Shown: positions 37,463-42,954 of the stretch, one piece after another
Layout of the letters: each line of letters opens with the position of its first letter
How positions within the stretch are numbered: position 1 is the first letter of the stretch
NCBI GenBank assembly: GCA_963674745.2
Contig: CAXXDV010000001.1
Span: 2,592,001 to 2,656,000 of the forward strand
DNA from: Desulfosudaceae bacterium
Lineage (GTDB): Bacteria; Desulfobacterota; Desulfobacteria; Desulfobacterales; Desulfosudaceae
Direction of reading: 5' to 3'
DNA length: 64,000 bases
Position numbers and translations under genes: made by a program
The notes under the pieces: generated by a model
Told to the model about the DNA's origin: nothing
The model's database searches: none
What the model saw: only the letters and a program-made list of their open reading frames with translations

Positions 37463-37518
37463 ACCGGATGAAAATATGATAAATTGCCCCGCATGGAGGC
37501 TTTCCGGTTGACAAGAAA

Positions 37519-37552
37519 AGACGCTGCCGCACACATGTGTGCGGCAGCGTCT
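37519..37552. terminator. Perfect 34-bp palindrome between convergent genes; probable terminator
   Basis: AGACGCTGCCGCACACA|TGTGTGCGGCAGCGTCT, followed by TTTCTT on the minus strand. Confidence 0.7.
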
Positions 37553-37574
37553 CAAGGTTTTGTGACCGGACGAA

Positions 37575-39200
37575 TTAATTCAGCGCGGGCAGGGCATCAA
37601 GCATTTTCTTGTCCGAAGATCCGTTCAACTGGAAGCCCACCACATTTCCGGTGGCCGAAAATGCGATATAGGTGGCGTTGGTAATCGGCCTTGGCGTAAA
37701 AAGCTGCTCCGCCATGGCAACCACTTTTTCATAACCGTTCAGACTGATCGTCGTTGTCGCCAACACCCCTCCGTTGTCATTATAAGCCCTCAGGGTAATG
37801 GATGCATTTGTGGCCTCCGTGTTGACAAAAGCGATGCCTGTCCAGCCGTTTTTTTCAATTTTGGGGAATACACCTGCCAGGGCACCGGCTGAACCGCTTT
37901 CGGCATAGGCTGCCAGCTGACTGTTGTCCAGGGTGCTGAACAGCTCGAAGCCGCTGAGCGCTCTGGTGGCGTCAATCTTGAACCAGGCTGTCTGTTCCGG
38001 AAGATCAAGGTTTTTGACCAGGCCGATATATTTTTCTTTGCCCCCGATGGTAAGGTTGGATGTGGCCAGAGCAGTGCCGTCCTGGCTGAAAGGTGTGATG
38101 GTAATGTCGCTGGCGGCAGCTGACGGATTATAGGCGACAATACCGGTCCACCATGATTCCTGGTTGGCCACATGGGGATAGTATATGGTTGTTGCCGTAT
38201 CGTCTGTAAGGAGCAGGCCGTCCAGCTGGGTGGTACTGCCGAAAAGCTCCAGCCCGATGATGCCGCTGGCGTTGGAGATGACGGCAGACTTGATTCCCGT
38301 CTGGGGTTGCCCGCCGAAAAGTCCGGCGATGGTAAATATTTTATGCTCGTTGGCATTAATCGTGTAATTCTTACTTCGGCCGTCACTGAAATTAATGACC
38401 AGGGCTTTCGCCTGGTTGTTTGTATTCACCAGGCTGACACCGGTCCAGAAGTTATTGTTTGAAGCGATGTGTGAAATGTAAATGTTCGACGTGTTGATTT
38501 CTTTTACAGCCGGTATGGCCGTCCTGTATGCTCCTGATTGAAAGAATTTCGTATAACCTTCAACCTCGGCAACCGTATTCGTGGAAAAAACGATGTAACC
38601 GATATTGGCGTGGTTGACAAAGTCATTGGCAACAGTGATTTGTTTGCGGCCCCGGGGCCCAAGCGTAACGTCCATGACCTCCAGGAGGACACCACTGTTG
38701 CTTTTGGCCTTCAGCGTACCGTTGAGGGTCTGATTGGTACTGGTATTGATAATCGCAATCTCCGTCTGCCAGGGCGACCGCGTGGTAACATGCGGGAAAT
38801 AAAGATAGGTGACGTCCAAGGTATCAATGAAATACGCGGTCACGGATTTACTCTGTGAGGCCGTGTTAACCGTTATCGAGTTGGTGGTGTATATAACCGT
38901 GCTGCCATTGGCCTCGACTTTCCAGTAGTCAAAGGCATACCCCGTTGCCGGGACCGCCGTCAACGTATAAGTATCGCTGCACGTATAATCCGCGGGATAG
39001 TACGGTGGAATGGGGTTACCGGAAAAATCATTAGAGGACATATCACCACCACCGGCTGGGCTGACATTCACGGTCAGCGCTGGGCCAGGTCAGGCGGCGG
39101 TTGCCGCACCGGGCATGATCAGGGTGATACAAGAGAAGGCAAGGATCAGGCAAAACAAAAGAAGGCTTTTGTGGTTTAAAAAATGCGTTTTATATATCAT
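37575..39200 (-). CDS. Putative secreted selenoprotein, paralog C (541 aa, Sec37)
   Basis: ATG 39200; MIYKTHFLNHKSLLLFCLILAFSCITLIMPGAATAA-TGA(39090-39092)-PGPALTVNVSPAGGG continues in frame into the 498-aa ORF; SECIS-like hairpin 11 nt after TGA. Confidence 0.8.
39060..39078 (-). promoter_or_regulatory. Putative bacterial SECIS element (paralog C)
   Basis: GCTGAC-CGTGAAT-GTCAGC starting 11 nt 3' of in-frame TGA. Confidence 0.75.
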
Positions 39201-39256
39201 GTTTTTTTCCTTGTTTGTTGAAAAAATTGAACATTAACGAACGGAACGCAAGCCCA

Positions 39257-41050
39257 TCAGTGTAAGGCTGGAAGCCCGTCCATCAGCAATCCGTCTGAAG
39301 AGGCGGTTAACTGAAACCCCACGATATTTTTGCTTGAGGTAAAGGCAATGTAACCGGCAAAAGAAACGTTCTGGGGTGCAAAGAAATTTTCCACCAGGTC
39401 CACTTTTTTGGCAAGACTGCCCACGGTGAAAGTGCGGGAGGCCAATGCCACGCCTTCGTTGGTGTAGGCTGTCAGCGTAATTGTAGCATCACCGGCTTCC
39501 GCGTTGACAAAGGCGATACCGGTCCATCCGTCGGCTTCGATTTTGGGGAAAATACCCTGCCTGGCCCCGGCACCGTTTCTTTCAGCGTAGGCGGCCATTT
39601 TATTGTTATCCAGGGTGCCGAAAAGTTCAAAACCGACCAGGGGCTGGGAAGCGTTGATCTTGAACCAGGCTGTCTCGGATGGCAGGTTAAGACCCCTAAC
39701 CACACCGATATATTTTTCTTTTCCGCCGAGTACAAGTGTGGATTGGGTCAGCATTGCTCCTGTTACACTATAAGGGGTAATCGTAATCTGCGTGCTCAAG
39801 TTCCATGGATTGTAGGCGACGACACCTGTCCACCAGAAGGCCATATTGGCGATATGGGGATAGTAAACGACGGAGGTGGTATCATCCGTCAGCAGAATGC
39901 CATCCAGATGCTTTAAACCGCCGAACATTTCCATGCCGAGAATGCCGTAGGCATTGGTGATCACGGCAGACTGGATATCCGGTTGTGATCCACCCATCAG
40001 GCTGGAGATCGTAAATGCTTTATGCTCTTTGGCGTCAAGGGTTATTACAGCGGTTCGTCCGTTGTTAAAGGTAATAACCGGATTTTGAGGCGCTGAATTT
40101 GTATTCAAAAGGCTGATACCGGTCCAGAACCGTTCGTTCGAGGCAATGTGCGGAATATAAATATTCTGTGTGTTGACCTCGGTTGCCGCCGGTACTGCCG
40201 CCCGGTAGAGCCCTTCCTGTGAGAACTGGGTATACCCCTGAAGGCCGGTATCGGCGGCGTAAAAGATGACGTAGCCAATGTTATCATCGGATACAAAGGG
40301 GTTGGAAAAGTCAGTTACAACATTGTACTCCAGTCGCTCGTGGGGCGCAATCGTGACAGATTTGGTCTCTATCAGTTCTCCGGAATCACTGAATGCTTTC
40401 AGTTTTCCATTGATGCTTTGGGTGGCGTTGGTATTGATTATACCGATGACCGTTTTCCAGGGGAGGTCCGCGTAGATATGGGAGAAGTAGAGCGCAGGTG
40501 TTCCCTCTACTTCATCACCGGGACCCTGGTCTGTGTCATCGCCACCATCACCGTCGTCGCCACCATCACCGTCATCACCACCATCACCGTCATCACCGTT
40601 ATCACCACCACCGGTTCCCGGAGGCGGCTGCGCGCCCGTGTTTGAAAAGTGGGCTGTCACATATTTGCTGTCTGTTTCAATGTTCACGGTAACCGGGTTC
40701 TGAGTGGTTGTGGACACGGTAATTGTTTCGCCGGTACAAGCCACAGTGATCGTTTCAATTTCCCAGTAAACAAAAGAATACCCGTCTGCCGCATTTGCTT
40801 CCGCTCTTAACGTGTATTCGGAACTGGTTGAAAAATTTTCCGGATATGTGTAAGGTGGGCGACTGAAACTATAGCCGAAATCATCGGAATAGATATCACC
40901 GCCGCCGGCCGGGCTGACATCCACGGTCAGCTTGGGACCGCCTCAAGCCAGTGCCTTTCCGGGGGTTGCCACCACAATGATGGTTAACGCCCAAATCGTG
41001 CAAGCGACAAAAAAATTAAGACTATGGAAGAAGATATTATTTCGTCCCAT
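39257..41050 (-). CDS. Putative secreted selenoprotein, paralog B (597 aa, Sec36) with Gly/Asp linker
   Basis: AAGGAGG RBS, ATG 41050; MGRNNIFFHSLNFFVACTIWALTIIVVATPGKALA-TGA(40943-40945)-GGPKLTVDVSPAGGG in frame with the 555-aa ORF. Confidence 0.82.
40535..40606 (-). repeat. 18-bp coding tandem repeat (GDGGDD-like x4)
   Basis: gtcatcgccaccatcacc-type units encoding GDNGDDGDGGDDGDGGDDGDGGDD. Confidence 0.85.
40913..40931 (-). promoter_or_regulatory. Putative bacterial SECIS element (paralog B)
   Basis: GCTGAC-CGTGGAT-GTCAGC starting 11 nt 3' of in-frame TGA. Confidence 0.75.
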
Positions 41051-41088
41051 ATTGTTCCTCCTTATTCGGAAGTTTCGTCAACGAACAA

Positions 41089-42744
41089 TCAATCAAGGGC
41101 CGGCAGTCCGTCTAACATCTTGTCGTCGGAAGATCCGTTCAGCTGAAAACCCACGACGTTTCTGTCCGAACGAAAGCCGATGTAACTGGCAATCGAGATG
41201 TTGCTGTTGGAAAAGATGCTTTCCGCCATCTTGACCACTTTGGCATGGCTGTTGACTCTGAGTGTCGCCGTAGCCACGTTCATCCCGTCGTTCCGGTAAG
41301 CGGTCAGGGTCACATTGGCGGGGCTTACTTCTGTATTAACAAAAGCAATGCCCGTCCAACCGTCCTTTTCAAGCTTGGCAAAAGCACCTTGCTTACTTCC
41401 GGCACCGCTTTGTTCTGCATAAGCCGCCAGTTTCTGGTTATCCAGGGTGCTGAACAGCTCGAATCCGACCATCGGCGAAGTGGCGGTCAACCTGAACCAG
41501 GCCGTCTGATCGGGAAGGTTAAGGTTTCTGACCAGGCCGATATATTTATCATTTGGCCCGATACTGATGGTTGAACCGGTCAGCGCGTTTCCCAACTCGG
41601 AGTAAGGCGTGACGGTTATCGTGTTGGTCGTGTTCGACGGGTTATAACCGACGATACCGGTCCACCATGATCGGGTGTCGGCCACGTGGGGATAATATAT
41701 GGTAATCACCGTGTCGTCCGAAAGTACAATGCCATCCAACTGCGTATTTGTGCCGAAAAGTTCCAGGCCGACAATACCGCTGGCATTGGTAATCCTGGCC
41801 GATTTGATGTTCGGTTGCGCTTCACCTCCGAACAGGCTGGCGATGGTAAACGCCTTATGCTCGTAAGGGTTAAGCGTGACATTAGCCTGGCGGCCGTCAT
41901 TAAACAGAATCGTCAGTTTCTTGGTCACGGAGCCCGAGTTGACCAGGCTTATTCCGGTCCAGAAATTGTCGTTGGAGGCAATATGCGGCACATAAATGTC
42001 GCCCGTGTTCGCCTCTTTTATGGCGGGAACGGCGGTTCTGAATTTTCCTTCCTGGTAAAATTTCGTGTAACCAACGGCACCTTCTCTATCTCCATGAAAG
42101 GTAATGTGCCCGATTTCTTCCGGGTTCGAAAACCAGTCGCCAATGTTCAGCTCTCTCCGACCATGGGGATAAAGGGTGATCGATTTGTTATCTATTACCT
42201 GGCCGCTGTCAGTGTAGGCCCTCAACGTGCCGAGCATGTTCTGATCAGCATTGGTGTTGATAATGCATATTTCCGTTTCCCATGGTGATTTGGTGGACAC
42301 GTGTGGAAAAAACAGGGATGGCGCTTGGCTGAGCTCAAGAAAATAGGCCGTAACAGATTTTCCCTCTTCTAAAATACTGACGCTAATGGGATTCTGGGTG
42401 GAAAAATCGGTTGATGATACGGTATCACCCTGGCAGGTACTCGTTATGGTGTCGACTTGCCAGTAGGAGAACACATATCCTGTTTCCGAGTTGGGCATTG
42501 CCATCAGGGTATAGCTGGTTGCACTTGAAAAATTTTCCGGATACGTGCTTGGCATATTGTTATACGTATCAAATTGATTTGACATAATATCTCCGCCGCC
42601 TGCCGGGCTGACATCCACGGTCAGCTTTGGGCCGCCTCAGGCAAAAGCGTTACCCGGCGTCATAATAGCGGCGCAAACCATAACCGGCAGCGCAATTAAA
42701 AAGAAAATTGTCAGACATTTTTTAAGCATACGCTTGTGAATCAT
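41089..42744 (-). CDS. Putative secreted selenoprotein, paralog A (551 aa, Sec36)
   Basis: GGGAGA RBS, ATG 42744; MIHKRMLKKCLTIFFLIALPVMVCAAIMTPGNAFA-TGA(42637-42639)-GGPKLTVDVSPAGGG in frame with the 509-aa ORF. Confidence 0.82.
42607..42625 (-). promoter_or_regulatory. Putative bacterial SECIS element (paralog A)
   Basis: GCTGAC-CGTGGAT-GTCAGC starting 11 nt 3' of in-frame TGA. Confidence 0.75.
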
Positions 42745-42925: not shown

Positions 42926-42954
42926 ATTATGGGTTTTTTTTTAAGCCCTGTCAA
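42926..42954 (-). promoter_or_regulatory. Sigma70-like promoter for the three-paralog operon
   Basis: Minus strand TTGACA (42954-42949)-17 nt-CATAAT (42931-42926). Confidence 0.55.

Follow-up and report, generated by a model that had tools for sequence, protein, structure and literature searches.

Three tandem genes of a Desulfosudaceae bacterium probably encode exported, adhesin-like proteins tipped with selenocysteine

Introduction

On the minus strand of a 64,000-nucleotide stretch of Desulfosudaceae bacterium DNA (GenBank assembly GCA_963674745.2, contig CAXXDV010000001.1, positions 2,592,001 to 2,656,000; hereafter the window), three paralogous genes stand in tandem in the order C, B, A. 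Each carries one in-frame TGA codon directly behind what looks like a signal peptide. Is this codon a stop, or is it read as selenocysteine (Sec, U), and what would such a residue do at the very beginning of an exported protein? A preliminary description of gene B, the gene under study here, placed Sec at residue +1 of the mature protein and offered two outcomes: a free N-terminal 1,2-aminoselenol or, less probably, a lipid attached to the selenium.

To our knowledge, the bacterial selenoproteins catalogued so far are, almost without exception, redox enzymes that carry Sec in the active site. Here, Sec would be placed at the tip of exported structural proteins of adhesin-like type, in a module that is found on at least four kinds of body. 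The best explanation overall, and in our judgement a fairly probable one, is that C, B and A are Sec-tipped exported selenoproteins in which the residue forms a dyad with a cysteine.

Results

Layout of the three genes and the decoding machinery

Gene B starts with an ATG at 41050..41048, preceded by a strong Shine-Dalgarno sequence, AAGGAGG, and reads in a single frame through MGRNNIFFHSLNFFVACTIWALTIIVVATPGKALA, the TGA (40945..40943) and GGPKLTVDVSPAGGGD. The corresponding junctions are ..MTPGNAFA-TGA-GGPKLTVDV in gene C (TGA at 42639..42637) and ..MPGAATAA-TGA-PGPALTVNV in gene A (TGA at 39092..39090), the latter continuing past the TGA as PGPALTVNVSPAGGGD. The three genes share one layout: Met, a short basic stretch, a hydrophobic core, P-G-x-A-x-A, the in-frame TGA and a conserved domain. 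The c-region ending at the TGA that had been described earlier is thus seen in every paralog; its variant form, ATA/AU or TAA/U (the slash marks the cut), assigned at that time to "paralog C", is the one of gene A in our naming.

The genome that contains the window (5.55 Mb, 99.96% complete) encodes a full selenocysteine apparatus. A tRNA-Sec is found at 75.1 bits, with the anticodon tca given by ARAGORN, together with selB (369.8 bits), selA (607.9 bits) and selD (368.6 bits), each of the four above its own cut-off. The selD match itself carries one in-frame TGA. Downstream of that UGA in the same genome there is no hairpin resembling the one of A, B and C described below, a comparison that is uninformative because bacterial selenocysteine insertion sequence (bSECIS) elements differ between genes. 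A second selB-like gene lies on contig 3 of the genome (1795409-1797292); at 239.9 bits it stays below the TIGR00475 cut-off of 242.25. Genes B and C terminate at TGA where A has TAA; TGA is therefore an ordinary stop here and is not globally recoded.

Relatives with the same layout

We used six N-terminal modules as a protein profile, without the RNA motif, to search 301 genomes of the same order. Matches occur in 38 of them. Twenty-two matches reach the signal peptide with exactly one TGA; they belong to 10 genomes of several families, including the window's own, so that 17 genes in 9 other genomes show the layout on the strength of the protein profile alone. In the alignment of 24 modules the Sec/Cys column does not vary: TGA stands there in 22 and a cysteine codon (TGT) in two. 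The two Cys forms are gene E of the same genome and a gene of a congener, G129b.

Gene E (contig 1, 1647573-1648589) lies next to a Sec form, gene D (contig 1, ~1646223-1647242), and a similar adjacent Sec/Cys pair is conserved in the congener (contig 9, 14649-16092). Such neighbours may be isoforms for selenium-replete and selenium-limited conditions. One more Sec gene of the window's genome, F, is found on contig 3 (~1353066-1352041).

A DNA pattern, TGAG-N(10-16)-CTGACCGTGNNNGTCAGCC, was then scanned against one genome per GTDB species. It gave 57 loci, 25 of them out of frame (mostly in Streptomyces, and noise) and 32 in frame. All in-frame loci but one, in a Propionicimonas metagenome-assembled genome (MAG), have the signal peptide, Sec and the domain. 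Five of these 31 repeat the profile set, leaving 26 new members from Desulfobacterales families, Syntrophaceae, unclassified "Deltaproteobacteria", one Dehalococcoidales MAG and one MAG labelled Pseudomonadota. Altogether, 48 Sec genes were found, mostly in Desulfobacterales.

A coding hairpin tied to the TGA

Right past the TGA, the DNA of A, B and C is nearly invariant and contains the hairpin GCUGAC-CGUG(G/A)AU-GUCAGC, made from the codons of Leu-Thr-Val-Asp/Asn-Val-Ser. The exact 17-nt motif CTGACCGTGNNNGTCAG has five copies in the genome, each 12 nt past an in-frame TGA behind a signal peptide: those of A, B and C, that of D on contig 1 and that of F on contig 3. This layout and its recurrence in other genomes are far beyond chance. 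The hairpin codons CUG ACC GUG nnn GUC AGC are present in all 22 Sec genes found by the profile, at 12, 15 or 18 nt from the UGA and always in frame.

As a control, we collected domain copies with a hidden Markov model (HMM) built from the alignment and aligned 67 of them from the first strand. All five stem pairs are kept in 22 of 22 copies with an upstream TGA, against 1 of 45 without it. Many of the copies lacking the TGA encode the same LTVxVSP peptide with other codons. Neither of the two Cys homologs, E and G129b, has the hairpin.

The bSECIS model of PMC13188914 (legend of Fig. 2) has an apical loop of 3-9 nt with a G in its first two positions, an upper stem of 4-16 bp, a UGA-to-loop distance of 16-37 nt and a minimum free energy of at most -7.5 kcal/mol. 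The rules for loop, stem and spacing fit all 22 members, which have a 7-nt loop, CGUGNNN, on a 6-bp stem (5 bp in one) at 17, 20 or 23 nt from the UGA. Positions 2-3 of the loop are G then U, as in the model. Folded in 60-nt contexts, the 22 members reach -8.1 to -23.8 kcal/mol, with the hairpin present in only 14 of these folds. The family illustrates how a signal in the RNA can dictate the codon choice, and perhaps also the amino acids, of a β-strand.

Taken together, the machinery, the invariant column, the hairpin tied to the TGA and the Cys homologs make it very probable that the in-frame TGA of A, B and C is decoded as Sec, as the preliminary description had assumed.

Export signal and register of cleavage

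A positively charged n-region followed by a hydrophobic core was recognised by a charge and hydropathy test in 47 of the 48 segments that precede Sec; the thresholds of this test and the residue sets allowed at -3 and -1 are our own, and two members with no ATG in range were left out. None of the 48 segments contains a twin-arginine motif (S/T-R-R-x-F-L-K-like), which bears out the earlier remark on this point. Their length is 29-44 residues with a median of 35 (41050..40946, 42744..42640 and 39200..39093 in the window, plus 45 relatives). Such a segment is long for a signal peptide; it is nearly as long as the nascent chain needed to fill the exit tunnel of the ribosome.

The AxA motif proposed as a site for signal peptidase I stands as well: the leader is of the Sec type, and the -3/-1 rule allows a cut directly before Sec or one residue earlier. 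Cleavage directly before Sec, making it residue +1, is permitted in 16 of the 24 aligned members, A, B and C among them. In the other eight, the sole legal site lies one residue earlier and Sec would be +2. Three of the 26 further members have N, Q or D right before Sec (AKA/N-U, AVA/Q-U and AAG/D-U); Sec must therefore be +2 there. Rule-based prediction thus places Sec at +1 in B and C and at +1 or +2 in A. Position +1 holds as a prediction for B and C and is not supported as a general feature, nor is the free N-terminal 1,2-aminoselenol conserved as a family trait. What is conserved is Sec within the first two mature residues and exactly one cysteine in the domain behind it. We consider export with cleavage by signal peptidase I, at Sec or one residue before it, to be likely.

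A single cysteine in the Sec-tipped domain

Exactly one cysteine is found in the Sec-tipped domain of 21 of the 22 members from the profile search (one has three) and of all 26 from the pattern scan, that is, in 47 of 48. Domain copies lacking Sec behave differently: 45 of 53 have an even number of cysteines, mostly two, in a count that left out the 26 copies found in the window's genome and in the Sec-bearing loci. Odd numbers occur in the remaining eight, some of which may stem from envelope edges. Such a pattern would be expected if Sec stands in for one member of a pair that is bonded or acts jointly.

The lone cysteine occupies at least five different positions of the alignment. The most common is before the "YTLTA" strand; others are an inserted hairpin (B, C and G129d), a site just before the last strand (T-C-D type), a site after the Trp strand and the immediate vicinity of Sec (U-C, U-x-C). 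Wherever such a vicinal cysteine occurs, the distal one is missing. After removal of the signal peptide, A and B would have a single Sec and a single cysteine apiece over their whole length. We think that a functional Sec-Cys dyad is reasonably probable; that it takes the form of an intramolecular selenylsulfide is a more tentative proposal.

Fold and architecture

The AlphaFold2 model of the N-terminal 161 residues of B, built on a 24-row alignment, has a mean predicted local distance difference test (pLDDT) score of 85.6, with a signal helix at residues 5-28 and a β domain at residues 41-137. Full-length C, modelled with a 38-row alignment (pLDDT 89.4, predicted template modelling score 0.84), shows the same first domain followed by four β-sandwich domains; its residues 28-33 are below a pLDDT of 50.

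With the whole model, Foldseek returns strings of Ig-like or macroglobulin-type domains, such as A2ML1 (7q62_A, E 1.1e-7, template modelling score 0.13) and the Ig-like domains of PrgB. The first domain alone has no match in the PDB at E <= 0.001, and the weak top rows are β-grasp proteins. The best rows of VIA-align for this Sec-tipped domain are Gram-positive pilin and adhesin domains of CnaB type, 8f70_A (Z 7.1, rmsd 3.0 Å over 90 residues), 3b2m_A (Z 7.0) and 5u6f_A (Z 6.1), where a Z of about 7 is, according to the tool, common for models with no true match.

At the level of families, PF18998 (cut-off 23.6 bits) matches A at 26.5 bits and B below threshold at 14.0 bits, and gives no match for C; many database homologs bear precomputed PF18998 labels. 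No family of Pfam or NCBIfam covers the N-terminal tip, and for the C-terminal body these two collections give just sub-threshold matches to DUF5719 or DOMON.

The N-terminal cassette precedes at least four kinds of body. Four Ig-like domains follow it in A, B, C and their orthologs, PKD-like repeats with a short Gly-rich GCF tail in D, E and F, and rhodanese-like or SdrD/CnaB-like stretches in others. The body of about 410 residues with four domains (YFPHV..W.TEIA.INT repeats; 37578-42744 in the window, and homologs P0023-P0123) is very common among metagenome proteins of Thermodesulfobacteriota, where it is fused to many other N-terminal domains: peptidases, LamG, Kelch, rhodanese and fibronectin III. 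The relatives with PKD repeats end with a Gly-rich run, G-C-F-(I/V), five to six residues and the stop, a short conserved tail with no transmembrane stretch (D, E and F; loci L026, L027 and L030; also L040, L074, L101 and L107); it matches none of the sorting-signal models of NCBIfam. A rhodanese-like stretch (..VIDVRE.. / ..HMLCAKNY..) follows the Sec-tipped domain at five loci, L035, L066, L067, L038 and L068 (genomes G134, G063 and G214), an indication that some members may take part in sulfur or selenium chemistry.

Discussion

A proposed path from UGA to the protein tip

We propose the following sequence of events for C, B and A. SelB, with Sec-tRNA, would read the UGA at codon 36 or 37, guided by the small hairpin (6-bp stem, loop CGUGNNN) that the codons of the first β-strand, Leu-Thr-Val-x-Val-Ser, provide. 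The preceding 35-36 residues would act as a Sec-type signal peptide, and signal peptidase I would cut after the AxA motif, leaving an exported adhesin-like protein with Sec at +1 (B, C) or +1/+2 (A). This mature protein would consist of one CnaB- or B-repeat-like domain and four Ig-like β-sandwich domains. Its selenol would act with the single cysteine of the first domain; our best guess, a tentative one, is an intramolecular selenylsulfide by which the flexible N-terminal tip is fastened to the domain, a covalent staple that would survive in reducing, sulfidic surroundings. The signal peptide, the Sec codon, the strand that encodes the SECIS and the domain stay together as one cassette, attached to different C-terminal bodies.

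A wider version of this proposal is a portable "selenium tip" on the surface proteins of sulfate reducers, with the selenylsulfide between tip and lone cysteine, with adjacent Cys paralogs as a back-up, and with a synthesis gated by selenium because failed decoding yields just the signal peptide. We put it forward as a speculation that is less likely than not to hold as a whole.

Several observations weigh against the proposed path. The bare hairpin is worth only -7.0 to -7.3 kcal/mol (-4.3 in one member) against the -7.5 of the bSECIS model; it is part of the minimum-energy fold of the 60-nt context in just 14 of 22 members; the 63-nt folds of the three genes are no better than shuffles (z = -1.12, 0.12 and 0.00); and the stem is invariant, so that covariation support is absent. 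Thermodynamic support for the hairpin was dropped in view of the 63-nt folds. With weak folds and no covariation, the case therefore rests on the conservation of synonymous sites and its strict tie to the TGA. The 26 members from the pattern scan are not independent evidence for the hairpin because they were selected by it; they are useful for protein features. As to the protein, residues 31-40 at the tip are modelled with a pLDDT of only ~65-67 (about 65 in B), and about 40 of 50 members, by our own count over the alignment and census rows, would also fit cleavage after U-G, which would remove Sec. Gene C has an additional cysteine (160) in its second domain, and the Cys-form relative G129b has none in the domain. 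Finally, the varied positions of the partner cysteine are not obviously explained by a single fixed bond geometry.

Alternative readings

The main rival to a selenylsulfide is a selenol that, with or without the cysteine, stays free and reactive at the tip, as a soft-metal or metalloid ligand, as a site of redox chemistry or sulfur/selenium transfer, or as a handle for an intermolecular Se-S bond to some other component of the surface. The tip, modelled at low confidence, may be flexible, and the position of the partner cysteine varies widely. Several relatives carry the cassette fused to rhodanese-like stretches, the relatives of D/E/F type have another cysteine in the GCF tail, and Sec at +1 in B and C would give the aminoselenol that had been suggested earlier. 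Against a free selenol, the body of A, B and C resembles a string of Ig-like domains with no match to a catalytic family, and the aminoselenol is not conserved across the family because Sec is +2 in many members. In addition, the strict presence of one cysteine, where copies lacking Sec mostly have two, suggests a bonded pair of which one half was replaced. We regard a free selenol as unlikely, yet as the alternative to be taken most seriously.

A second possibility is that Sec belongs to the c-region of the signal peptide: signal peptidase I would cut after U-G, Sec would be lost, and the UGA with its SECIS would mainly be a gate making synthesis dependent on selenium. Sec is preceded by A or G in 45 of the 48 Sec members and a glycine follows Sec/Cys in 40 of 50, a legal -3/-1 pair, and failed decoding would release just the 35-residue leader. 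However, Sec/Cys is followed by P, V, E, D, Q, Y, C or A in about ten of the 50 and Sec is preceded by N, Q or D in three, and all 50 accommodate a cut immediately before Sec or one residue earlier. Cleavage after U-G also leaves unexplained both the cysteine found at that column in the two homologs lacking the TGA and the single cysteine of the domain. We judge it improbable.

The seleno-lipoprotein, in which Lgt, LspA and Lnt would treat Sec as the +1 cysteine and attach the lipid to selenium, fares worse. The chalcogen does come right after the signal peptide, mostly followed by Gly and preceded by A or G in most members, and the varied passengers behind a common N-terminal module are reminiscent of lipoprotein families. 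The lipobox, however, is missing: the strict form, [LVI][ASTVI][GAS]C, occurs in 0 of 24 members, and a permissive PROSITE-like pattern in 6 of 24. At position -3, seven of the 24 have K, E or D and just two have L, V or I, and a Pro/Gly break about six residues upstream of Sec, with a polar c-region, separates the hydrophobic core from it. The three relatives with N, Q or D at -1 speak against lipidation too, as does the folded domain, which begins only 4-6 residues past Sec. This outcome, already the less favoured one in the preliminary description, is not supported, and we hold it to be very improbable.

Least credible of all is a true stop, with a 35-codon leader peptide and the real protein starting from a GTG or ATG a few codons downstream: public gene calls for the window genes and almost all close homologs do begin at (M/V)DVSP, (M/V)NVSP or further downstream, cut at the TGA, but the frame, the residues from the TGA to that start and the full signal peptide are conserved across 48 genes, the internal GTG has no Shine-Dalgarno sequence in the gene B sequence inspected, the downstream product would be an adhesin-like protein with no export signal, the Cys homologs read straight through, and the hairpin occurs only with the TGA.

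Public gene calls lose the export signal and the selenium site of all these genes. With calls cut short in this way, counts of the Desulfobacterales selenoproteome are therefore too low and the proteins are mislabelled as cytoplasmic fragments.

Comparison with known systems

The genes share with those that use SelB and SECIS, of the E. coli fdhF type, the in-frame UGA, the coding stem-loop immediately downstream, whose small apical loop has G then U at its start and lies 17-23 nt from the UGA, the selA/selB/selC/selD set and the Cys-bearing homologs. They differ in that Sec would be residue 1-2 of an exported adhesin-like protein instead of part of an oxidoreductase active site, in that the hairpin is small (-7.0 kcal/mol alone) and made from conserved β-strand codons, and in that the whole N-terminal module recurs before unrelated C-terminal bodies. 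With bacterial lipoproteins (Lgt/LspA/Lnt), the common point is a chalcogen right past the signal peptide, usually followed by Gly; the differences are the missing lipobox, a charged or polar -3 or -1 residue in many members and a c-region with AxA of the signal peptidase I type.

CnaB-type domains of pilins carry covalent (isopeptide) bonds between their first and last strands, and the Mobiluncus adhesin 5U6F has disulfide, isopeptide and ester bonds. Like this adhesin and the Spy0128 pilin (3B2M), the Sec-tipped proteins would be surface proteins, and both are among the best structural matches of the Sec-tipped domain, at a Z in the background range. The chemistry proposed here is Se-S, a bond that we infer, and not isopeptide. 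Given the bonds from first to last strand in pilins, a link from Sec to a cysteine of the last strand is geometrically plausible. If the structural selenylsulfide is real, it would be a new natural cross-link for extracellular proteins in a reducing environment and a useful precedent for protein engineering. In this speculative view, a chalcogen bond would do what isopeptide bonds do in the pilins of Gram-positive bacteria, forming and persisting where disulfides would be reduced.

A resemblance to divergent InlB B-repeats (PF18998 Flg_new_2; PF09479 / TIGR02543, the Listeria-Bacteroides repeat) shows in the PF18998 score of gene A, with B below the cut-off and C unmatched. The pattern LTVxVSPxxGG...YxFxxW...VTAxF also occurs in multi-copy repeats without Sec in related genomes. 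The N-terminal Sec extension and the single cysteine are specific to the Sec-tipped copies.

In Methanococcus, selenium-dependent and selenium-free hydrogenases form a Sec/Cys pair of isoforms. The Sec form D beside the Cys form E, a pair kept in the congener, is a similar arrangement, with the difference that D and E are surface proteins and not enzymes.

Catalogued extracytoplasmic selenoproteins with Sec-Cys motifs include the DUF1573 "UGC" family, SaoB, SaoX and SaoC of Haft's 2022 preprint (10.1101/2022.07.06.499078) and entries in Table 1 of PMC13188914. Our family shares with them a signal peptide, a Sec adjacent or close to a cysteine and database gene calls that are too short; folds and positions of Sec are different. 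Table 1 of the 2026 review PMC13188914, with its 119 families and subfamilies, lists no B-repeat or CnaB-like surface protein and none that is defined by Sec at a mature tip. A search of the literature for secreted selenoproteins with a signal peptide or a selenocysteine lipobox gave nothing relevant among the papers listed, judging by their titles and the openings of their abstracts, the BSepDB family list, which may bear on novelty, being outside this comparison. New here are the A/B/C paralogs with a different body, the codon control of the hairpin, the rejection of the lipoprotein, the +1/+2 register and the rule of one cysteine.

Other features of the locus

Coordinates are collected in Table 1. 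The genes C, B and A probably form one operon, for which a promoter-like site upstream of C is a possible start; the consensus scan behind it found 8 sites, with 7.0 expected from shuffles.

Table 1. Features of the C-B-A locus, in window positions.
Feature	Position	Strand	Remarks
Promoter-like site TTGACA-17-CATAAT, ~180 nt upstream of gene C	42926..42954	-	11/12; consensus scan only
Gene C	42744..41092, then TGA stop 41091..41089	-	551 codons; Sec codon 36
Signal peptide of gene C	42744..42640	-	
In-frame TGA of gene C, very probably read as selenocysteine U36	42637..42639	-	
SECIS-type hairpin of gene C	42607..42625	-	GCUGAC-CGUGGAU-GUCAGC, from L-T-V-D-V-S codons
Gene B	41050..39260, then TGA stop 39259..39257	-	597 codons; Sec codon 36
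Signal peptide of gene B	41050..40946	-	
In-frame TGA of gene B, very probably read as selenocysteine U36	40943..40945	-	predicted mature residue +1
SECIS-type hairpin of gene B	40913..40931	-	6-bp stem, 7-nt loop CGUGGAU; UGA-to-loop 17 nt
Sec-tipped β domain of gene B, residues 41-137	40640..40930	-	divergent InlB B-repeat / CnaB-like
Cys105 of gene B	40736..40738	-	sole Cys of the mature protein; proposed partner of U36
Gene A	39200..37578, extending to 37575 with the TAA stop	-	541 codons; Sec codon 37
Signal peptide of gene A	39200..39093	-	
In-frame TGA of gene A, very probably read as selenocysteine U37	39090..39092	-	predicted mature residue +1 or +2
SECIS-type hairpin of gene A	39060..39078	-	GCUGAC-CGUGAAU-GUCAGC
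Cys74 of gene A	38981..38979	-	lone Cys of the mature protein
Terminator-like hairpin directly 3' of gene A	37518..37553	-	16-bp stem + T-rich tail; consensus scan only

The neighbours in the window (a FadB-like enzyme, an Fe-S protein, an M48 peptidase with LemA, a glycogen phosphorylase, a sigma factor and a TPR protein) are unrelated and give no functional clue.

A contig of 266 nt from an RNA library, a sediment metatranscriptome (run X10) of a study different from the likely source of the window, matches 40717..40982 letter for letter and runs across the TGA of gene B. It is a weak hint of transcription, because DNA can occur in such libraries. Runs X1 and X2 contain the whole stretch; they may be its source and hence are not independent. 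Coverage gaps in runs X3, X7 and X10 carry no information. Between the first domain and the Ig-like body, gene B has a low-complexity linker rich in Gly and Asp (GDDGDGGDD repeats, ~40530-40620, minus strand), which shows 10 differences in a metagenome contig of run X7.

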